45,216 nt of DNA from an uncultured bacterium (GTDB lineage Bacteria; UBA8481): NCBI GenBank assembly GCA_964499705.1, contig CAZCME010000013.1, positions 1-45,216 of the forward strand, given 5' to 3'. The translations under genes and the position numbers were made by a program. A model generated the notes under the pieces. The model saw only the letters and a list, made by a program, of their open reading frames with translations. It was not told the origin of the DNA and ran no database searches. This document shows positions 27,913 to 37,794 of the stretch, one piece after another. Every line of letters starts with the position of its first letter. Position 1 is the first letter of the stretch.

Positions 27913-29850
27913 ATGGGACAACATCAATCAGACGGGCACCACTCGCAGGGATCTTCGCATGCCAATCACGCTAGTGACGGACATCACGAGACCCATCACG
28001 AGCTCGGATTCTGGCGCACGTACGTCTTCTCCGTCGACCACAAGGTCATCGGCCTTCAATACGGCATAACCGCTCTCGTCTTCCTCTTCATCGGCTTCAC
28101 CTTCATGATGCTGATGCGCTGGAACCTCGCCTATCCGGGCCAGCCGATCCCGGTCCTGAAGCACATCTGGCCCTACTTCGGTTCTGCCGTCGACTGGATC
28201 AGGATTCACATGGCAGGCGCTTCCGCCAGCACATTCGCGCAGGAATCTCTTCCCGACGGCGCGCTCGATCCGACGTTTTACAACCAGCTCGGAGCGATGC
28301 ACGGCACGATCATGGTCTTCCTGGGCGTCGTGCCGCTTGCGGTCGGAGCATTCGGCAACTACGTGATGCCTCTGCAGATCGGAGCGCCGGACATGGCGTT
28401 TCCGAAGATCAACATGGCGAGCTACTGGTCGTTCCTGCCGGGCGGGATCCTGATGCTCCTCTCGTTCCTGCTGCCGGGCGGAGCCGCCCAGTCCGGCTGG
28501 ACATCCTATCCTCCGCTATCCGTCGTCAGCCCGGGACAGACCGCCTGGCTCATCGGGATGATCTTCCTCATCACGTCATCGCTCCTGGGATCCGTCAATT
28601 TCATCGTCACCATCGTCCAGCTCCGCGCACCCGGCCTCACCTTTTTCGAGCCGGGCAAGCGCTGGTTCGGATTCCCCGTCCCCTCGCAGAGTTTCCCCTT
28701 CTTCGTCTGGGCGCAGTTCGTCACGTCCTTCCTCCTTCTCCTGGCGTTTCCTCCTCTCGAAGCCGCCGGCGTGCTGCAACTGATGGATCGCGTCGCGGGC
28801 ACCAGCTTCTTCATGCCGTCGGGGCTCGTCGTCAGCGGCAAGGCGCTCGAATATGCCGGCGGCGGCAGCGTGCTCTTGTGGCAGCATCTCTTCTGGTTCC
28901 TCGCGCACCCGGAAGTGTACGTGCTCCTTCTGCCCGCGATGGGGATCGTCGCGGAGGTCATCGCGAACAACACCAGGAAGCCGCTCTTCGGCTACAAGGC
29001 GATGGTGGGCGCCACCATGTTTCTCGGATTCATGTCGTTCATCGTCTGGGCGCATCACATGTTCATGACCTCGATGGGCACCGTCATCAGCGCCTTCTTC
29101 CAGACGACGACGATGATCATCTCCATTCCCTCCGTCATCATCCTCACGTCGCTCATCATCTCGCTCTGGGGAGCCTCCATCCGCTTCAATACGCCGATGC
29201 TCTTCGCTCTGGCATGGATGCCGATGTTCGGCATCGGAGGCTTGACCGGCCTGCCGCTCGGACTTTCGGCCACGGATATTCCTCTCCACGACACGCTGTA
29301 CGTCATCGGACACTTCCACTACGTCGTCGCGCCGGGCACCATATTCGCGCTTTTCGCGGGCATCTACTACTGGTTCCCGAAGGTGACGGGACGGAAGATG
29401 AGCGAGAAACTGGGGCAGCTCCACTTCTGGCCGTCGCTCCTCTGCATGAACGGCATCTTCATGCCGATGCTCTTCCAGGGCATGGCCGGCATGAACCGGA
29501 GGCTGGCCGACGGTGGAGCCGCCTACACGCACGTGCAGCATGTCCTGTGGATGAACGAGCTCATGTCGTGGTCGGCCTGGATCCTCGCCCTCGCGCAGAT
29601 TCCGTTCATCTTCAATTTCTTCCGGAGCATCTGGTGGGGCGAAAAGTGCGGCGACAATCCATGGCAAGCGACGACGATCGAATGGTCGGCTCCGTCACCT
29701 CCGGGCCACGGCAACTTCCTCGCGCCGCCGGTCGCCTATCGTGGGCCCTACGAGTACAGCGTCCCCGGGCAGGAGAGCGATTTCTCTCCGCAATTTCTGC
29801 CTGATTCGGCTTTGGCGGCAAAACCAGCGCCGGCCGCGGGAAAGGCCTGA
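27913..29850 (+). CDS. ctaD: cytochrome c oxidase subunit I (A1-like; K-channel Lys absent)
   Basis: All six His ligands (MHG, HPEVY, WAHH, HFH), APDMAFP, LHDT and NRR. Confidence 0.97.
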
Positions 29851-29852
29851 CG

Positions 29853-30527
29853 ATGGTCGCTCCTGCGCCATCCGTGACGCCCGCGACACTTCCCACATCC
29901 TGTGGGTCGGATGTCGTGATCCAATACGTGGACAAGCCCCGTCCTGACACCGGCGTCACCAACGCCAAGCTCGGCATCTGGCTCTTCCTTGCCTCCGAAG
30001 TCATGCTCTTCGGCGCCCTCTTTTCCACCTACATCGTCATCCGCTCCGGCATGCCCGCGGACCTCTGGCATTCCTTCAATCACAACGCCGACGGCAGCAC
30101 GCTCCTCAGCATCCCCATGGCGACGCTCAACACCGTTTTCCTCATCACATCCAGCATCACGATGGTGATGGCGTGGGCGGAACTGATGCGGAAGGATTTT
30201 TCCCGGCACAGGCTCTATCTCGGCGCCACCGTCCTCCTCGGCTGCTGCTTTCTCGTCGTCAAATATTTCGAATACGGCGCCAAGTTCGAGCATCACCTCT
30301 ATCCGAGCACGAACAATTTCCTGGCGATCTACTTCACGATGACCGGGCTCCATGTGATCCACGTCATTGGAGGCCTTCTCGTGAACGCCTATTTTCTCTT
30401 TCCTGGTGCTAAAATGTGGATGACGGAACCGGATCGGTTTACCGGGCGGATCGAAGTGTCGGGCCTTTACTGGCACTTCGTCGATCTCGTCTGGATCTTC
30501 CTCTTTCCCGTTCTGTATCTGATGTAG
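29853..30527 (+). CDS. ctaE: cytochrome c oxidase subunit III
   Basis: GIWLFLASEVMLFGALF, TGLHVIHV and YWHFVDLVWIFLF. Confidence 0.95.
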   Translation: MVAPAPSVTPATLPTSCGSDVVIQYVDKPRPDTGVTNAKLGIWLFLASEVMLFGALFSTYIVIRSGMPADLWHSFNHNADGSTLLSIPMATLNTVFLITSSITMVMAWAELMRKDFSRHRLYLGATVLLGCCFLVVKYFEYGAKFEHHLYPSTNNFLAIYFTMTGLHVIHVIGGLLVNAYFLFPGAKMWMTEPDRFTGRIEVSGLYWHFVDLVWIFLFPVLYLM

Positions 30528-30537
30528 GAGAAACAGC

Positions 30538-31059
30538 ATGACCGAGACGCACGCGCATATGCATGATTTTGAACATCACAAGAATCTGTATATCAAGATC
30601 TTCGCGGCCCTGATGGGCCTGACCGTGCTGACGGTCGGCGCGAAATACCTCAACATCCCGATCGTCAGCGTCACCATCTTCATCGCCGTCCTGATCGCAG
30701 CCATCAAGGCTTCGCTTGTCGCGCTCTTCTTCATGCACCTGTCGGCGGAGCGGAAGATCATCTACGTCATGCTCATCCTGATGGTGCTCTGCGTCATCGG
30801 GCTCTTTCTCCTGCCGACCGCGATGCAGCACGGCCCGATCACGGGAACAACGGCCTCGCCGCTTTCCGTCGCCGGATCCAGGGCCAACGGCGCGGGGCAC
30901 GGGCGCGGCGGCGAAGAAGCGCCGCTAGCGGCCGGCACGACGCCCGCGGACTCCGCGGCGGAAGCCGGCGCACATCAGTTGGAATCAGGAGCGGCTGACA
31001 CGGGGGCGGCCGCCGCAGCAGCATCGACCACGGAAACGCCCTCCAAGGAGAATCACTGA
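30538..31059 (+). CDS. cytochrome c oxidase subunit IV family protein with Ala-rich tail
   Basis: IA.IKASLVALFFMHL motif; three TM helices; AGGAG SD. Confidence 0.9.
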   Translation: MTETHAHMHDFEHHKNLYIKIFAALMGLTVLTVGAKYLNIPIVSVTIFIAVLIAAIKASLVALFFMHLSAERKIIYVMLILMVLCVIGLFLLPTAMQHGPITGTTASPLSVAGSRANGAGHGRGGEEAPLAAGTTPADSAAEAGAHQLESGAADTGAAAAAASTTETPSKENH

Positions 31060-31060
31060 C

Positions 31061-31255
31061 ATGTCGTTGAAGAGCTTCCATATCTTCTTCATCGCGCTCT
31101 CGTCGCTTCTCGCCTTCGGGTTCGGAGCGTGGTGCGTGCTGGAGAATTCGGCGCGGTACGTGCCGATGGGAATCCTCTCGTTTTGCGCGGGTGTGGCGCT
31201 GGTCGTTTACGGCGTCTATTTCCTGCGGAAATTGAGGAACGTCAGCTTCCTGTGA
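31061..31255 (+). CDS. small two-TM protein in the oxidase operon
   Basis: 64 aa (MSLKSFHIFFI...); AAGGAG SD; tightly packed in the operon. Confidence 0.75.
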   Translation: MSLKSFHIFFIALSSLLAFGFGAWCVLENSARYVPMGILSFCAGVALVVYGVYFLRKLRNVSFL

Positions 31256-31542
31256 AGCGCGTTCATTCCCTCCCCGCCCTCCTCGCCGCGATCTGGCTCG
31301 TAGCGGCATGGGCCGGCCCGGTCTCCGCGTGCGCCGTCTGCTATGGCGATCCCTCGTCCAGCGCGGTGCAGAGCGTGAACATGGGCGTGATGTTCATGGT
31401 CGGCGTCGTCGGCATGGTGCTCGCCGGTTTCGTCGCCGCCTTCATCGTGTATTCCCGGAATATTGAAAGAAAACTCGCGCAGGCTTGCCTGGCACAGTCT
31501 TATCCGGCCCATGCGGGCCCGGAGGAGGAACAACGCTCATGA
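31252..31542 (+). CDS. small exported membrane protein with CAVC motif
   Basis: GTGA overlap; signal-like helix, then ACAVCYG and a second TM helix; stop overlaps the subunit II start. Confidence 0.7.
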   Translation: MKRVHSLPALLAAIWLVAAWAGPVSACAVCYGDPSSSAVQSVNMGVMFMVGVVGMVLAGFVAAFIVYSRNIERKLAQACLAQSYPAHAGPEEEQRS

Positions 31543-32306
31543 CACAATGGCTCGGACTTCCCTTCGACGCTTCGACTCACGGCGCGGAACTGGACATCGT
31601 CATGATGATGGTGCACCTGCTGATGTTCGCCCTCTTTATCGGGTGGGGAACGTTCTTCGGTTACACCATCTGGCGCTTCCGCAAGGGGCGCCAGCCGCGC
31701 GCGATCTACGAGGGCGCGCAGAGCCATGCCTCGACGTACCTGGAAGCGGTGCTTGCAGGCATCGAAGTCGTTCTCCTTTTCGGATTCTCCATTCCCATCT
31801 GGGCATCTCAGATCAACACGCTGCCGGACGAAAAAGACGCGGTCGTCATTCATGTCGTCGCCCAGCAGTTCACATGGAAGCATCATTACGCGGGAGCCGA
31901 CGGGATCTTCGGGCGTCAGGAGGTCGCGCTCGTCGACGAACAGAGCAACCCGCTGGGCCTCGATTACAAGGACGAGCACGCTCTCGACGATATCGTCACC
32001 GGCGAACTGCATGTTCCCATCAACAAGCCCGTGATCGTCAAGGTGACGTCGAAGGACGTGATTCACGGGTTCGGCATCCCCTGCCTCCGCGTGAAACAGG
32101 ATGCGATGCCCGGCATGCTCGTGCCCGTCACCTTCACGGCGAAGAAAATCGGCGTGTTCGAGATCGCCTGCTCACAACTCTGCGGTCTCGGGCACTCCAA
32201 CATGAAGGGCATCGTCGTCATCGAGACGCGGTCCGAGTTTGAAAAATGGGCGACGGAGCAATCCGCGTCCGCAAAGGAGATTAACGCGTCCGGCGGATTG
32301 TTCTGA
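31539..32306 (+). CDS. ctaC: cytochrome c oxidase subunit II (CuA)
   Basis: Two TM helices, AQQFTW, DVIHGF and CSQLCGLGHSNM CuA ligands; GGAGG SD before ATG at 31539; no fused cytochrome c. Confidence 0.95.
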   Translation: MTQWLGLPFDASTHGAELDIVMMMVHLLMFALFIGWGTFFGYTIWRFRKGRQPRAIYEGAQSHASTYLEAVLAGIEVVLLFGFSIPIWASQINTLPDEKDAVVIHVVAQQFTWKHHYAGADGIFGRQEVALVDEQSNPLGLDYKDEHALDDIVTGELHVPINKPVIVKVTSKDVIHGFGIPCLRVKQDAMPGMLVPVTFTAKKIGVFEIACSQLCGLGHSNMKGIVVIETRSEFEKWATEQSASAKEINASGGLF

Positions 32307-32327: not shown

Positions 32328-33383
32328 ATGAATAGCCCGGGTCATCACGCGCCAGCCCCCTGGCGGCGGCGGTTCGCCGTCCTGACCGCCTGCGCCACGC
32401 TCCTGCTCATCTTCGCCGGCAGTCTCGTCACATCGACCGGATCCGCGCTTGCCGTACCCGACTGGCCCCTGGCGTATGGCATGCTCTTTCCTCCGATGGT
32501 GGGCGGTGTCTTCTATGAACACGGTCACAGGATCATCGCCTCGCTGGTCGGATTCCTCACGCTCATCCTCGCCGTCTGGTTCGCCCGCACGGAAAACCGC
32601 TCCTGGGTCCGGAAATGCGGCTGGCTCGCGCTGGGAGCCGTCATCGTGCAGGGATTGTTCGGGGGCATGACCGTCCTCTTCATGCAGATGCAACCGCTCT
32701 CCATCATACACGGCGTTCTCGCGCAGTCGTTTTTCATGCTCACCATCCTGCTCGCCCACAGCCAGTCGAACGTTTCCCGGCAAACCCCGACGAGCGCAAC
32801 GCCGGCATCCGCGCTGAGGAAACTCTCTTTCGCCGCCATGGCGGTCATCTACATCCAGCTCATCCTCGGAGCCGTCATGCGGCACACAAGCTCCGGACTC
32901 GCGATTCCGGATTTTCCGACCATGGGCGGATCCTGGATCCCTCTCTTCGACGATGCCATGCTGAAAACCATCAGCACGCTCCGGTTCGAAGCCAATATCG
33001 ATCCCCCATCCGTCAGTCTTGCGCAGGTGGCGATTCATTTCGCCCACCGTGCGGGCGCCGTCCTCGTCTCGCTCGTCGTCATCGCGTTTCTCCTTCGCAC
33101 TCGTGGCATTCCCGATCTTCCCCGGTCCATACGGCGCGATGTGAACCTGCTCGGCGTGCTCCTGGCGGCACAGGTTATCCTCGGAGCCTTCACCATCTGG
33201 AGCGTCCGCCAGCCGTTTGTCGCGAGCTTTCACGTGCTGACGGGCGCGACGATGCTGGGTCTGTCCACGCTCCTGTACCTTCGATCTTTTCCAGCGCATA
33301 TTTTCGCACGGGAGCACCTCTTCCCGGCCCCGGACGATTCCACGATGCGCGGAGCTGAACCCGGGGAACTGGCCAAGGCATGA
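32328..33383 (+). CDS. ctaA: heme A synthase (COX15/CtaA)
   Basis: PDWP, EHGHR, IHG, HFAHR and FHV conserved His set; eight TM helices. Confidence 0.9.
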   Translation: MNSPGHHAPAPWRRRFAVLTACATLLLIFAGSLVTSTGSALAVPDWPLAYGMLFPPMVGGVFYEHGHRIIASLVGFLTLILAVWFARTENRSWVRKCGWLALGAVIVQGLFGGMTVLFMQMQPLSIIHGVLAQSFFMLTILLAHSQSNVSRQTPTSATPASALRKLSFAAMAVIYIQLILGAVMRHTSSGLAIPDFPTMGGSWIPLFDDAMLKTISTLRFEANIDPPSVSLAQVAIHFAHRAGAVLVSLVVIAFLLRTRGIPDLPRSIRRDVNLLGVLLAAQVILGAFTIWSVRQPFVASFHVLTGATMLGLSTLLYLRSFPAHIFAREHLFPAPDDSTMRGAEPGELAKA

Positions 33384-34267
33384 GCACGGCTCCGTCCCTG
33401 ATGCGTTCCTACATCGCTCTCACGAAGCCCCGGCTGGTCTCCATGGTCGCCGTCTCGTCTTCTCTCGGATTCTTTCTTGCATCTTCACCCCGAGCTTCCT
33501 TTCCAGACGCCACTCTGGCTCGATACCTCTTCATGATTCTCGGCGTCGGACTCTCCGGTGCGGGATCGTGCGTGCTGAACCAGTATCTGGAGCGCGATGC
33601 GGATTCGCGCATGGAACGGACGCGCCACAGACCGCTTCCGACCGGCGAAATCTCTCCGATGCATGCGCTGCTCCTCGGCGTAACGCTTGTTCTGGCGGGC
33701 ATTTTCATACTCGAAAACCAGGTCAACCTGCTGACAAGTTTCCTGGTGCTTCTGACGACATTCCTGTATGTCCTCGTGTACACGCCCCTGAAACGCCTCA
33801 CATGGCTGAACACGACCGTCGGCGCCATACCCGGAGCCATACCGACGCTGGCAGGATGGGCGGCCGCCACCAATCATCTCTCCCCCGCCGCCTGGACACT
33901 CTTCACGATTCTCTTCCTCTGGCAGCATCCCCACTTTTTCGCGATCGCCTGGCTGTACCGCGACGACTACCGGCAGGGCGATTTCCGCATGCTGCCCGTT
34001 GTGGAACCCGACGGCGCGAGCACGTTCCGGCAGATCCTCATCTTCACCGTTCTCCTCATCGCCGCGTCACTCGCACCCGCCGGTCTCGGCACGGCTGGAC
34101 TTATCTACACCGCTGGAGCCCTGCTCCTGGGAACCATTTTCCTCGCCAGCGGTATTCGCCTCGCGCGGCTTCGTTCCACCGAGCAAGCCCGGGCCCTCTT
34201 CCATTTCTCCCTGCTCTATCTCCCCTGCCTCCTCCTCCTCCTCGCCGCCGACTCGATCCTGCAATAA
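33380..34267 (+). CDS. ctaB: protoheme IX farnesyltransferase (heme O synthase)
   Basis: LTKPR, N...ERD.D..MERT..RPLP.G, YTPLKR and WQ.PHF.AIAW...DDY. Confidence 0.95.
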   Translation: MSTAPSLMRSYIALTKPRLVSMVAVSSSLGFFLASSPRASFPDATLARYLFMILGVGLSGAGSCVLNQYLERDADSRMERTRHRPLPTGEISPMHALLLGVTLVLAGIFILENQVNLLTSFLVLLTTFLYVLVYTPLKRLTWLNTTVGAIPGAIPTLAGWAAATNHLSPAAWTLFTILFLWQHPHFFAIAWLYRDDYRQGDFRMLPVVEPDGASTFRQILIFTVLLIAASLAPAGLGTAGLIYTAGALLLGTIFLASGIRLARLRSTEQARALFHFSLLYLPCLLLLLAADSILQ

Positions 34268-34268
34268 C

Positions 34269-34916
34269 ATGAGCCTGCATGCGGACAAGAAGACGATGAG
34301 AGATAATACGGGGACAGTATACCTATTTTGCGTGAAGGATTTCACGCAAAATAGGTATACTGTCCCCGTATTACTCGTATTAATCATGGGGCTAGCGGCG
34401 TGCGGCGAGCCTGCGAAGCCGCCGTTGCCGGTCGTGGGCCAGGCGCCGAAATTCACGTTCCTGGACCAGGATGCGAGGGAGTTCGGTTCGGCTCAACTCG
34501 AGAACAAGGTCTGGATAGTCGACTTCGTGTACACAATGTGCGCGGGACCGTGTCCGGTGATGAGCCGGAACATGGCGTCACTGCACCGCTCCTACGCGCT
34601 CGATGACCGCGTTCGTTTCGTGACGGTGACGGTCGATCCGGAGTTCGACTCGCCCCGGGTGCTGAAGGAATACGCGGAGAAGCAGGACGCGAAGACGAAG
34701 CAATGGGTGTTCCTGACGAGCGATTCCGCTTCCATCCACAATCTCGCCTACGAGGGTTTCAAGATCGGCTCCAAGGACGACCCGATCTTCCACAGCACCA
34801 GGTTCGCGCTCGTCGACGGCAAGTCGCGCGTGCGCGGATACTATGAAGGAACGGACGACGAGGAAGTCGCGCGGCTCTTCAGTGAAATCGCGCGGCTCCT
34901 GGAGGAGCCATCATGA
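34269..34916 (+). CDS. SCO/SenC copper chaperone lipoprotein
   Basis: CAGPC (CxxxC), TVDPEFD, conserved His in FHS, lipobox LAAC; start at 34269 or 34296. Confidence 0.9.
   Translation: MSLHADKKTMRDNTGTVYLFCVKDFTQNRYTVPVLLVLIMGLAACGEPAKPPLPVVGQAPKFTFLDQDAREFGSAQLENKVWIVDFVYTMCAGPCPVMSRNMASLHRSYALDDRVRFVTVTVDPEFDSPRVLKEYAEKQDAKTKQWVFLTSDSASIHNLAYEGFKIGSKDDPIFHSTRFALVDGKSRVRGYYEGTDDEEVARLFSEIARLLEEPS
34304..34373. repeat. 70-nt perfect palindromic element, copy 2, inside the 5' end of the SCO gene
   Basis: 33-bp perfect stem TAATACGGGGACAGTATACCTATTTTGCGTGAA with loop GGAT; near-identical to 27262-27331. Confidence 0.95.
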
Positions 34917-35344
34917 CGATTGCCGACCTGCCGGCGGTCAACGCCTCGCTGAATTTCTGCGCGGCGGTCCTCCTGACCTCCGGCTGGTTCGCCGTTCGAG
35001 CCGGCCGCCGCGACATTCATGCCAGGCTTATGATCGCCGCGCTCATCGCTTCGGCCGCCTTCCTCGTGTCGTATCTCGTCTACCACTTCAACATCGTGGC
35101 CGTGACGAAATACCAGGGGCAGGGCTTCCTGCGGGCGCTCTATTTCTTCATCCTCTTCACGCATATCCCGCTCGCCGTGCTGGTCGTCCCGGGCAGTCTC
35201 CGGGCCGTCTGGATGGCAGCGCGCGGCGATTTCGTCCGCCACAGGAAGACAACTCGATGGCTCTGGCCGGTCTGGATGTACGTCTCCGTCACGGGCGTCG
35301 CCATCTATGTCATGCTCTATATCCTGCCGGCGAACGCCTCATGA
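34913..35344 (+). CDS. DUF420 family membrane protein
   Basis: LPAVNASLN, H...M..A..AS..FL.SY..YH and W.YVS.TG. Confidence 0.9.
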   Translation: MTIADLPAVNASLNFCAAVLLTSGWFAVRAGRRDIHARLMIAALIASAAFLVSYLVYHFNIVAVTKYQGQGFLRALYFFILFTHIPLAVLVVPGSLRAVWMAARGDFVRHRKTTRWLWPVWMYVSVTGVAIYVMLYILPANAS

Positions 35345-37794
35345 TCGAGCTCGGCGTCACTCTCATCCGCTTCGGGCTCGCTGTGTCCGCGTGGTCGCTG
35401 GCTGCCGGAATCTTCGGCGCGTGGAGCAAACACCGCGCGGCGACGGAATCCGCCCGGCGCGGTGTCTTCGCCGCCGCCATTCTCTCCTGGGCCGGAGCGG
35501 CCGTTCTCGTGAGGCTCCTCGTCAGCCGCGATTTCCGCGTCGCGTATGTCTGGGAGTACACCTCCCTCACGCTCCCTGATATCTACGCCTTCACCGCTCT
35601 CTGGGCGGGCCAGGCCGGATCGCTGCTCTTCTGGCTCTGCATTCTCGGCGTCGTCTCCACGATCGCGCTCGCCAACATGCGGGGAAAGCTGCCCGACTTC
35701 GAGCCTCAGCTCCCTTGGATAATCGCTTCCATCCAGCTCTTCTTCTTCCTTCTCATCACCTTCGCCGCCGATCCGTTTCAGCTGCTCACCGACAGATATC
35801 CGGAGGCGGCGATCGCTTTGCCCGTGGACGGCAACGGCTTGAATCCCCAGCTCCAGAACTTCGGCATGATCATCCATCCGCCGCTCCTGTACGCGGGTTA
35901 CATCGCCTACACGATCCCCTTCGCTCTCGCGATGGCCGCTCTGGCTTCCGGCAATCTGGGCGACTTGTCGCATGGCGCCTCCTGGATCCGCGCCGCCCGC
36001 CGATGGTCGATCGCGGCCTGGATGATTCTCGGGTTCGGCATCCTCTGCGGAGCGCGATGGGCCTATGTCGAGCTGGGCTGGGGAGGCTACTGGGCGTGGG
36101 ACCCGGTGGAGAACGCCAGCCTCATGCCCTGGCTGACCGGCACCGCGTTCCTCCACTCCGTCATGATCGAGGAACGCCGCGGCATGCTCCGCCGCTGGAA
36201 CATCTTCCTCATCGCCCTGACGTACCTGCTCTGCCTCTTCGGCACATTTCTCACGAGAAGCGGTATCCTTTCGTCCGTCCACTCCTTCGCGCAATCCGAC
36301 GTCGGCCCGTTCTTCGTCCGCTTCATGTCGACATGGGCGTTCGCGGCCGCGGCGCTCTTCCTCTGGCGATGGAAGGAATTGCGGGCGGCTCAGCCGTTCC
36401 ATTCCGTTCTCTCGCGGGAATCCTCCTTCCTCTTCCAGAACCTGCTGCTCCTGGGAATCTGCGGCGCCGTATTCTGGGGGACGATGTATCCCATCATCTC
36501 GGAAAATTTCACCGGCGAAAAAGTCACGGTCGACGCCCCTTACTTCAACAAGGTCGTCCTGCCGCTGGGACTGGCCCTCTATCTCCTCACCGGTTCCGGG
36601 CCGCTCATCTCCTGGCGCCGCGCCTCCGGCGAGAGCCTGCGCAAGAACCTGGGCATGCCCGTTGCTCTGGGAGTGCTTGCGGGCATGGCGGCCGTGGCCC
36701 TGGGTTCACGCGACTGGATGGCGTCCAGCGCCTTCGGACTTTCGTTTTTCATCGTGGCCGCGGTAATTTTAGATCTCTACACATCCTCGCGCGTACTGTC
36801 GAAACAGACATCGCAGCCGCTCCTTCGTTCCTCTCTCGTTCTCATTGACCGGAATCACCGGCGCTACGGAGGCTTCCTCACGCACATCGGCATGGCGGTT
36901 CTCCTCATCGGTCTCGCCGGAAACGCGTTCAACCAGGAAGTGGAGAAACATCTCGCGCCGGGAGAATCGATGGAGCTCGGGCATTACCGACTTGTGTATC
37001 GCGGATTCGAGGAGGATAACGACGGCCACCGCAACATCTACCGCGCCAACGTGGATCTCCTCAGGGAGGGCGAACCGATCGGCTCGGAGCATCCGGAGAT
37101 CTCCATCTATTTTCCAGGACAGGAGAAGGAAACGAGAAACAGCGAAGTCGCCATCCGGCCGACGCTCTTCGAGGATCTGTACATCATCTTCGCCGAGCCG
37201 GACGGCTCCAACGCCGTCATCAGGATGATGATCCATCCGCTCATCGCCTTCGTCTGGGCCGGTGGATTTCTCGCCGTCCTCGGCGCGCTTGTCGCGATCG
37301 TGCCCTGGCGTTTCTCGCTTCCACGCGGCGCTTCCTCCGCGGCGGCGGCCCTCGTGCTCGTCCTTGTCGGCGCCGGAGCGCATGCGGAAACACCCCGGTA
37401 CACGCACGCCCTGGGAAATCGCGATCCGATCGCGAAGGAATTCGCCTGCCGGTGCGGCTGCACGATGATTCTTCACGAGTGCGATCACCCCAATTGCCCC
37501 GGCTCCGGGCCGCAACTGGACGAGATCGCGGCGTGGCGCGCGGAAGGATTGACGGACCGGCAGATCATCGATCGCGTCGTGGCCCGCGACGGCTTGAAGG
37601 CGCTCTCGTCGCCGCCCGCGGAAGGCTTTCACCTTTCGGCATGGCTCGCGCCGTTCCTGGCCGTCGCCATGGGCGCGGCCGGATTGACGGCGTTCTTCTT
37701 CTTCCGGAGAAACACACCGGAACCAACCGTAGCCGAGCTGACCGCCGGAGAAAAAGACGCCGTCGAAAAGGCGCTGAAAGAGCGGCGATCTTGA
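35341..37794 (+). CDS. ccmF: cytochrome c heme lyase CcmF fused to a CcmH-like domain
   Basis: WAGQAGSLL, GLNPQLQ, IHPP.LY.GY, WGGYWAWDPVEN and SVHSF; C-terminal ACRCGC..HEC...C domain with PP..GF...AW..P. Confidence 0.93.
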   Translation: MIELGVTLIRFGLAVSAWSLAAGIFGAWSKHRAATESARRGVFAAAILSWAGAAVLVRLLVSRDFRVAYVWEYTSLTLPDIYAFTALWAGQAGSLLFWLCILGVVSTIALANMRGKLPDFEPQLPWIIASIQLFFFLLITFAADPFQLLTDRYPEAAIALPVDGNGLNPQLQNFGMIIHPPLLYAGYIAYTIPFALAMAALASGNLGDLSHGASWIRAARRWSIAAWMILGFGILCGARWAYVELGWGGYWAWDPVENASLMPWLTGTAFLHSVMIEERRGMLRRWNIFLIALTYLLCLFGTFLTRSGILSSVHSFAQSDVGPFFVRFMSTWAFAAAALFLWRWKELRAAQPFHSVLSRESSFLFQNLLLLGICGAVFWGTMYPIISENFTGEKVTVDAPYFNKVVLPLGLALYLLTGSGPLISWRRASGESLRKNLGMPVALGVLAGMAAVALGSRDWMASSAFGLSFFIVAAVILDLYTSSRVLSKQTSQPLLRSSLVLIDRNHRRYGGFLTHIGMAVLLIGLAGNAFNQEVEKHLAPGESMELGHYRLVYRGFEEDNDGHRNIYRANVDLLREGEPIGSEHPEISIYFPGQEKETRNSEVAIRPTLFEDLYIIFAEPDGSNAVIRMMIHPLIAFVWAGGFLAVLGALVAIVPWRFSLPRGASSAAAALVLVLVGAGAHAETPRYTHALGNRDPIAKEFACRCGCTMILHECDHPNCPGSGPQLDEIAAWRAEGLTDRQIIDRVVARDGLKALSSPPAEGFHLSAWLAPFLAVAMGAAGLTAFFFFRRNTPEPTVAELTAGEKDAVEKALKERRS

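Follow-up and report, generated by a model that had tools for sequence, protein, structure and literature searches.

Introduction

The closest described systems to the enzyme considered here are the canonical A1-type aa3 oxidases of Paracoccus denitrificans (1AR1/1QLE) and Rhodobacter sphaeroides (1M56). Our subject is the haem-copper oxidase subunit I (CoxI) encoded by coxI (ctaD) in a 45,216-nucleotide stretch of DNA from an uncultured bacterium of the lineage UBA8481 (assembly GCA_964499705.1, contig CAZCME010000013.1; this whole stretch is hereafter the window), together with the operon that it heads. The enzyme shares with the canonical oxidases the metal ligands, the HPEVY motif with its Glu and Tyr, the D-channel, a CuA domain in subunit II, the entrance Glu of the K-channel, and subunits III and IV. 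In the model enzymes a K319M mutation blocks haem a3 reduction, according to the accessible part of PMC12901375. Here the lysine in question is replaced by isoleucine, and we describe what is probably a working oxidase with a remodelled K-path.

Compared with canonical A1 aa3 oxidases, subunit I has Ile410 for Lys, Ser407 for Thr, Ala347 for Ser, Ser404 for Ala, Leu414 for Trp and Ala331 for Gly, while subunit II (CoxII) reads C-x-Q-x-C for C-x-E-x-C and has Glu77 for Pro. It is set apart as well by its gene order (coxI-III-IV-x-II), by a C-terminal RGPYEYS tail and by extra loops, which lie at approximately 244-257 and 301-312. A Lys-free route is known from the B-family ba3 oxidase of Thermus thermophilus, whose K-analogue path consists of hydroxyls and a subunit II Glu. 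The likeness to ba3 is one of principle only: with a full D-channel, HPEVY and best matches in the A-family, the present enzyme does not belong to the B-family.

K-channel variants have been classified by Degli Esposti et al. (2021; PMC8239418). Their A1 variants of KC or hybrid type have a non-ionisable residue in place of K354, Ser or Thr at T351, Glu at E292 and protonatable residues at the KC positions, with COX2 E78 scored separately, and by our mapping the query conforms to this description. Under 'A1 various subtypes', their Table_3 gives Elusimicrobia GWA2_38_7 as Y-A-I-S-C-E with Thr in COX2 and the label 'KC-channel', Elusimicrobia MAG13 as Y-S-I-S-C-E with Glu in COX2 and the label 'hybrid', and Methylacidiphilum as Y-G-L-S-V-E; the Elusimicrobia rows next read G-I-S-S. 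In the same table Y-Y-T-S with Glu in COX2 is given for Haloarcula ('ba3 classical') and for two A/B hybrids of bb(o)3 type from Thermoplasmata. In the accessible part of Table S1, the A1 'KC channel' subclade is entered as 'K-channel: no, KC' and as 'no' for Caa3_CtaG. By our own mapping, the query reads Y-A-I-S-S-E and G-M-A-S with Glu in COX2, and P0124, the representative of the query at 50% identity, reads Y-S-I-S-C-E, so the likeness to the KC and hybrid types lies in residue pattern and not in a tree. Few taxa are listed for those types, in contrast to the many phyla found here; no Elusimicrobia label occurred among the named matches of our homologue searches with the query and P0124 or of the scan of one genome per species, and Verrucomicrobiota matches were present in the scan and in the P0124 search.

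A second Lys-less group comprises the aa3 oxidases of the rus operon and of acidophilic iron oxidisers (Acidithiobacillus, Acidiferrobacter, Acidithrix), in which Ile, Val, Met or Leu stands in place of K354 and the D-channel is kept (bioRxiv 10.1101/2020.03.01.968255, as far as its available text goes; PMC8239418 Table_3). In that text the change of K354 to Ile goes together with loss of COX2 E78. These enzymes are typed A2 and have V, I, W or Q at E78 (Table_3), whereas the enzyme described here is A1-like and both of its CoxII glutamates are invariant.

Results

Residues of subunit I

The coxI product matches Pfam COX1 (PF00115) with an E-value of 3.7e-127 and 425.2 bits against a cut-off of 34.8. 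Its best NCBIfam match, TIGR02891 (CtaD_CoxA), reaches 534.9 bits and lies under the curated cut-off of 670.75. Searching all PDB chains with HMMER returned the aa3 oxidases of P. denitrificans (1ar1_A, E 3.4e-106) and R. sphaeroides (E 1.5e-102) as the best matches. In the alignment to 1ar1_A the P. denitrificans segment 'tmtiavptgikvfsw' lies opposite helix VIII of CoxI, with Ile410 facing the Lys and Ser407 facing the Thr; on helix VI, Ala347 is paired with the Ser. All three residues that define the classical K-channel, the Lys and Thr of helix VIII and the Ser of helix VI, are thus changed. The first-pass annotation had placed Ile410 and Ser407 at the Lys and Thr sites, and the alignment agrees; its readings of Ala at the bovine S255 position (Ala347, in GIVAEV) and of AHPEVY for GHPEVY (Ala331) were verified too.

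The metal centres and the D-channel, by contrast with the K-channel residues, are those of an A1 oxidase. The six His ligands of haem a, haem a3 and CuB are H130, H332, H381, H382, H467 and H469, and the D-channel residues aligned to P. denitrificans are Tyr50 (GLQY), Asn149 (GNY), Asp160 (APDMAFP), Asn167 (KINMAS), Ser222, Ser223 and Asn229. A residue and codon check and the alignment to 1ar1_A bore out every position at which intact ligands, cross-link Tyr and D-channel residues had been reported. Nitric oxide (NO) reductases are marked by the lack of a cross-link Tyr, an FeB or altered CuB site and the lack of a D-channel. None of these marks is seen in CoxI, whose cross-link Tyr and D-channel are present and whose CuB site has its His triad. 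An AlphaFold2 model of CoxI (predicted local distance difference test score, pLDDT, 89.5; predicted template-modelling score 0.90) assigns residues 320-354 to helix VI and 390-418 to helix VIII.

A clade without the lysine

All 8000 of the scored candidates in our protein search were homologues, and the best 119 non-self matches are 68-73% identical to the query, with labels from Acidobacteriota, Vicinamibacterales, Bacteroidota, Rhodothermia, Latescibacteria and Nitrospirae. The combination of a Lys-free IPS[VI]xx[LI], AHPEVY and G-x-x-x-E occurs in 121 of 121 sequences, the query and its identical record included. The 120 aligned clade members all keep Tyr336, Glu334, the complete set of metal ligands and, in the D-channel, Y50, N149, D160, N167, S223 and N229; S222 is kept in 119, the remaining sequence having Ala. 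Relatives are encoded in at least 596 of 600 pattern-matched stretches, with one genome taken per species, and the phyla represented include Acidobacteriota, Bacteroidota/Ignavibacteria, Latescibacterota, Verrucomicrobiota, Binatia and others. In these alignments the loss of the lysine is clade-wide, with Ile, Val or Leu in its place and the D-pathway and the O2-reducing site unchanged, and the rest of the enzyme is evidently under strong purifying selection. The first-pass annotation had proposed looking for a clade that shares IPSVII, AHPEVY and CxQxC, and such a clade exists, the Gln of the CuA motif being present in 66 of 66 related loci. Decay private to this gene (a pseudogene, or a loss set against homologues that all keep the Lys) can be dismissed as negligible: the reading frame is open, each of the 119 nearest homologues carries these substitutions too, and the residues listed above are kept in 119-120 of 120. 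The G+C content at third codon positions of coxI is 0.83, among the highest of the open reading frames (ORFs) in the window.

Three representatives at 50% identity that fall inside the query clade, P0126, P0127 and P0132, have neither the Lys nor the D-channel Asp and Asn. Their residues at the D160, N149 and N167 positions are S/A/R, T/G/S and S/H/S, respectively, with Glu334 and Tyr336 kept, and both textbook channels look rewritten in these proteins.

Several records at the National Center for Biotechnology Information call clade members 'cbb3-type cytochrome c oxidase subunit I'. Together with the NCBIfam CtaD scores under the cut-off, this misnaming looks like a systematic annotation problem.

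The K region in the clade

To describe the remodelled region we compared the 120 clade sequences with 63 canonical A1 representatives (values below are percentages unless given as counts). Position 410 is Ile in 97% of the clade (Leu 2%, Val 1%) and Lys in 63/63 canonical sequences, and position 331 is Ala in 120/120 against Gly in 63/63. On helix VI, the Ser of canonical enzymes at 347 (S98) gives way to A68/G22/S10, position 348 is E100 against H32/E24/T21, and the clade-specific run A-N-N-T at 351-354 is conserved at 97-100%, with Asn352 and Asn353 at 99-100%. Position 375 is S100 against G81. Helix VIII differs at 404 (S100 against A90), 407 (S100 against T92), 408 (V91 against G89), 412 (T88/S12 against F94), 413 (A84 against Ser or Asn) and 414 (L91 against W98). 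The upper K-path has therefore gained a hydroxyl at Ser404 and retained one at Ser407.

A basic residue moved elsewhere was looked for in helices VI-IX, and no relocated Lys, Arg or His is present among the 95 clade-specific invariant positions. The only basic position there is Lys/Arg362 (K59/R41), at the N-side start of helix VII.

The wider neighbourhood of the family was sampled with 109 near-full-length representatives at 50% identity from an exhaustive HMMER search. Lys is present in 72 and absent in 37; the sample is biased to relatives of the query, so that 37/109 should not be taken as the frequency in the family as a whole. The Lys is nevertheless commonly lost in this part of the family, and the description of K319 as near-invariant in A-family oxidases does not hold for these nearby representatives. 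On a FastTree phylogeny (no bootstrap) the Lys state changes at least 8 times, 5 of these being forced by well-supported branches, and 9 times when the K-channel columns are left out. The query clade comprises 7 representatives, all Lys-less, with an SH-like support of 100. It falls in a group of unsettled branching order with the Lys-less clade of the genome's own paralogue, another Lys-less pair and one Lys-bearing pair. Ser at 404 is found in 1/72 Lys-bearing and 23/37 Lys-less representatives, and Ser at 375 in 11/72 and 28/37.

Two glutamates and the CuA site of subunit II

We aligned CoxII to 1qle_B, 1ar1_B and 1m56_B. Its second transmembrane helix (TM2) reads S-T-Y-L-E-A-V-L-A-G-I-E-V-V, and contains two glutamates, E70 and E77, the first at the K-entrance position. 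Both are Glu in 73/73 related loci, at a CoxII identity of only 41-57%; a separate count found Glu at E70 in 74/74. The E77 position is Pro in the three canonical chains, and in seven Lys-bearing control operons it is Pro in six and Ala in one. In R. sphaeroides the entrance Glu and the Lys lie approximately 10-12 Å apart. As TM2 begins on the N side and rises, with its two glutamates spaced by seven residues, E77 should lie approximately 10 Å above E70, or about as deep as Ile410, for which the AlphaFold2 model gives a distance of 8 residues to the N-side end of helix VIII.

The CuA motif of CoxII, CSQLCGLGHSNM, has its His, both Cys, the second His and the Met, and Gln stands at the usual Glu. 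Of the 74 CuA motif matches in related loci, 72 read C[AS]QLC. The CuA-motif Glu of canonical enzymes doubles as a ligand of the Mg/Mn site, which lies at the interface of subunits I and II. The His-Asp pair of subunit I, H459/D460, is retained in 120/120 clade members.

Operon and neighbouring genes

The genes form a same-strand cluster, with coxI first, in the order coxI, coxIII, coxIV, a small CxxC gene, coxII, ctaA, ctaB, an SCO1-like gene and a CcmF-CcmH-like fusion (Table 1). The order coxI-III-IV-(small)-II is the rule among the 80 related loci examined, and a small gene between coxIV and coxII was detected by tblastn at the same place in 48 of the 80. Neither Pfam nor NCBIfam yielded a family match for the small protein, which might be a further subunit of the oxidase or a factor that handles copper. 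The coxII product scores 145.1 bits with TIGR02866, against a cut-off of 147.7. The true start of the SCO1/SenC gene is probably later than that of the longest ORF, because the latter overlaps ctaB.

Table 1. Positions, in the window, of the oxidase operon and of the residues discussed in the text.
Feature	Position	Strand	Description
coxI (ctaD)	27913..29850	+	A1-like haem-copper oxidase subunit I, 645 amino acids, ATG start, frame open
AHPEVY (331-336)	28903..28920	+	CuB ligand His332, D-channel Glu334, cross-link Tyr336; Ala331 for canonical Gly
Helix VI N-side end	28951..28971	+	Ala347 (canonical Ser), Glu348 (GIVAEV), Ala-Asn-Asn-Thr at 351-354
Ser404...Ser407, helix VIII	29122..29133	+	Ser404 for canonical Ala; Ser407 for K-pathway Thr
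Ile410 codon ATC	29140..29142	+	K-pathway Lys position (bovine K319, P. denitrificans K354)
coxIII	29853..30527	+	Short five-helix type; PF00510, E 4e-20
coxIV	30538..31059	+	Prokaryotic subunit IV; PF03626; TIGR02229 52.8 bits, over cut-off 37.25
Small membrane protein	31252..31542	+	About 96 amino acids from GTG 31252; lipobox-like L-x-A-C, then x-x-C-[FY]-G, one C-terminal transmembrane helix, basic tail
coxII	31539..32306	+	PF00116; two transmembrane helices and CuA cupredoxin domain, no fused cytochrome c
CoxII E70	31743..31745	+	Numbered from 31536; aligns with K-entrance Glu (P. denitrificans E78, R. sphaeroides E101)
CoxII E77	31764..31766	+	Seven residues deeper than E70, same helix face; candidate surrogate for Lys
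CoxII Gln214 in C-S-Q-L-C	32175..32177	+	Position of the canonical Glu that is also a Mg ligand
ctaA	32328..33383	+	Haem A synthase; PF02628, E 1.3e-38
ctaB	33380..34267	+	Haem O synthase; TIGR01473 287.8 bits, over cut-off 210.3
SCO1/SenC copper chaperone	33999..34916	+	PF02630, ORF residues 151-277
CcmF-CcmH-like fusion	34843..37794	+	983 amino acids, cytochrome c maturation; PF16327, PF01578, PF03918

Subunit I has several regions of its own. Residues 1-30 (27913-28002) contain nine His and are predicted to be disordered (pLDDT <50), and most homologues do not cover this tail. Residues 80-101 (28150-28215) are a clade-specific insertion between helices I and II, flanked by the conserved Pro80 and Gly116, which forms an extra helix in the AlphaFold2 model. 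Further insertions lie at approximately 244-257, a beta hairpin in the model, and at 301-312. In the CcmF-CcmH fusion, a Cytochrom_C_asm and a CcmF_C domain are followed by a C-terminal CcmH domain, and approximately 250 N-terminal residues have no assignment.

Upstream of coxI are clpA and a divergent cpYpsA gene, and the remainder of the window is housekeeping in nature: it includes rho and nusB, genes for riboflavin and a Tad-type pilus. On the same contig, approximately 12 kb past the window, there is a cytochrome b gene.

Genome context

The genome comprises 4.67 Mb on 45 contigs and is 96% complete. Its three PF00115 genes are the coxI described here, a second A1-like oxidase and a quinol-dependent NO reductase (qNOR) homologue of 778 amino acids that matches solved qNORs at E 1.1e-265. 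The second A1-like oxidase (G000:C1:336633-341000) has the order coxII-I-III-IV, GHPEVY and CAELC, and scores 591.7 bits with TIGR02891, also under the cut-off. It too has no K-channel Lys: its 'ISIPFSLMV' segment has Met at the Lys site, and the Thr position is occupied by Phe, the Ser position by Ile and the equivalent of 348 by Glu. In the tree this oxidase groups with P0139 and P0199, in a Lys-less clade separate from that of the query. Neither cytochrome bd subunit I nor a cbb3 oxidase, which would have matched PF00115, was found in the genome. Because both A-family oxidases are without the Lys and no bd or cbb3 oxidase was found, any O2 respiration by this organism, if it respires O2, runs on Lys-less enzymes.

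The operon was probably acquired horizontally, since three genomes of the same family have no coxI match at E <= 1e-50 and homologues in other phyla, the nearest known, are 73% identical. Among the genomes of 40 relatives, other matches are 35-41% identical, against 45% for the genome's own paralogue, and at 10 of the 16 loci of those relatives that were examined, where the pattern matched, the enzyme is of an SHP[AV]VY type with the Lys. The operon now lies amid core genes.

Discussion

Our preferred reading, to which we assign a probability of roughly 0.6, is that coxI belongs to a working aa3-type CuA-containing O2 reductase, encoded by a conserved operon and part of a large multi-phylum A1-like clade, in which the K-path is remodelled on carboxylates and hydroxyls. 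We infer that the path was rebuilt and not given up. The CoxII Glu E70, which is retained, would serve as the proton entrance. Protons would then pass to the membrane-buried CoxII E77, two helical turns up TM2, and/or to Glu348 of CoxI, where helix VI ends on the N side; water and the hydroxyls of the invariant Ser407 and Ser404 would next carry them to the cross-linked Tyr336. That the enzyme is probably a working one had been suggested in the first-pass annotation, and this has gained from the present analysis: the clade keeps the ligands, Tyr336 and the D-channel, there is no sign of decay, and the other A-family oxidase of the genome is also Lys-less, with no cbb3 or bd oxidase found beside them.

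A more specific version of this remodelling is one in which the Lys has been replaced in trans. The CoxII E70-E77 relay would feed the Ser407/Ser404/Tyr336 chain, and the reductive phase of an A1-type D-channel pump would run through an acidic and not a basic gate. We put this forward tentatively, as a possibility on which we would not wager at even odds. What may be new here is the invariant second Glu of subunit II as a candidate stand-in for the Lys; no mention of it was found in the literature searched, and in the accessible part of PMC8239418 COX2 is scored at 'the single residue', the second Glu not being among the scored sites.

Several observations weigh against a remodelled, working path. 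The face of helix VIII under Ser407 is hydrophobic in the clade (Ile410, Ala413 in 84% and Leu414 in 91%), which also fits a closed channel. The idea of a path rebuilt on Ser and Thr, raised in the first-pass annotation, thus holds for Ser404, Ser407 and Thr/Ser412, where a hydroxyl is 100% conserved, but not for the helix face below Ser407. An acidic residue at 348 is not special to Lys-less enzymes, occurring in 29/72 Lys-bearing and 27/37 Lys-less representatives, and this weakens Glu348 as a new residue replacing the Lys. Co-variation tests on independent pairs (for Ser404, Ser375, non-Trp414 and others) had 5 pairs on well-supported branches, and none was significant; these tests are weak, because only 5 pairs were usable. 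The depth argument for E77 is one of helix arithmetic and of the approximate R. sphaeroides distance given above. No RNA dataset was listed with the operon, the runs being of DNA only and mostly from groundwater metagenomes (3 studies). Finally, a CuB chaperone appears to be missing: CtaA, CtaB and SCO are present in the operon, but Cox11/CtaG (PF04442) and Caa3_CtaG (PF09678) were not found in the 96%-complete genome, so that the claim of a full set of assembly genes stands only in part. In the accessible part of Table S1 of PMC8239418 the KC subclade is likewise 'no' for Caa3_CtaG.

If the K-path were instead closed, chemical and pumped protons would all pass through the D-pathway, and the conserved Glu and Ser residues would be structural or a matter of packing. 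Such an enzyme would suit the invariant D-channel of the clade (120/120), the hydrophobic lower face of helix VIII (Ile410, Ala413, Leu414) and a position 347 that is mostly Ala or Gly, and enzymes of the B and C families are evidence that a single channel may be enough (PMC12901375, in its accessible part). We consider it unlikely, in view of features that it leaves without a ready account. Two invariant transmembrane Glu in CoxII (73/73), along with the invariant Ser404 and Ser407, are hard to ascribe to packing alone, and the 'modified' enzymes of iron oxidisers have the CoxII entrance Glu replaced in every row of Table_3 in PMC8239418, whereas this clade retains it.

Protons might also follow a 'KC-type' path along helices VI and VII, at the equivalents of the C-family channel (Ser375, Ser/Ala367, Tyr366 and Glu348). 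Ser375, six residues before the His-His pair at the site of the C-family cross-link Tyr, is 100% conserved against 81% Gly in canonical enzymes and marks 28/37 Lys-less against 11/72 Lys-bearing representatives; Tyr366 is at 94%, and the same residue pattern is labelled 'KC-channel' or 'hybrid' in Table_3 of PMC8239418. Position 367, however, is only S67/A33, with Ala in the query protein itself, and Lys-bearing enzymes such as the Flavobacterium entry share G-M-S-S in that table, so that these residues do not discriminate. We therefore regard this route as improbable.

A change of chemistry, with NO or peroxide and not O2 as the main substrate, had also been raised, by analogy with K-to-M mutants of model enzymes, which keep the peroxidase half-cycle. 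This analogy is its sole basis, and we think the change very improbable, given that conservation extends to the cross-link Tyr, to all ligands of CuB and haem, to CuA and the D-channel and to the synthesis of haem A, that the genome carries a separate full-length qNOR homologue, and that no other O2 reductase family was found in it.

For specialists in oxidase evolution a Lys-less gene comes as no surprise, as the A1 kind without the Lys is already catalogued from sequence (PMC8239418). Whether the literature had already characterised this clade was a question put at the outset: its residue pattern has been catalogued, but no biochemical work on such a Lys-less A1 clade was found, as far as our searches reach. 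The genes score under the NCBIfam CtaD cut-off and carry 'cbb3-type' record names, and for this reason counts of them as aa3-type oxidases may be too low in Acidobacteriota, Bacteroidota and related phyla.

The lysine is deemed essential in the model oxidases, yet there is a huge natural lineage, common among phyla of soil and groundwater, in which the O2 site and the D-channel are kept without it. E77 offers a concrete hypothesis for how this may be achieved, and one that is testable by mutation. The clade as a whole is a natural experiment on the role of the lysine, be it proton relay, charge compensation or gating.

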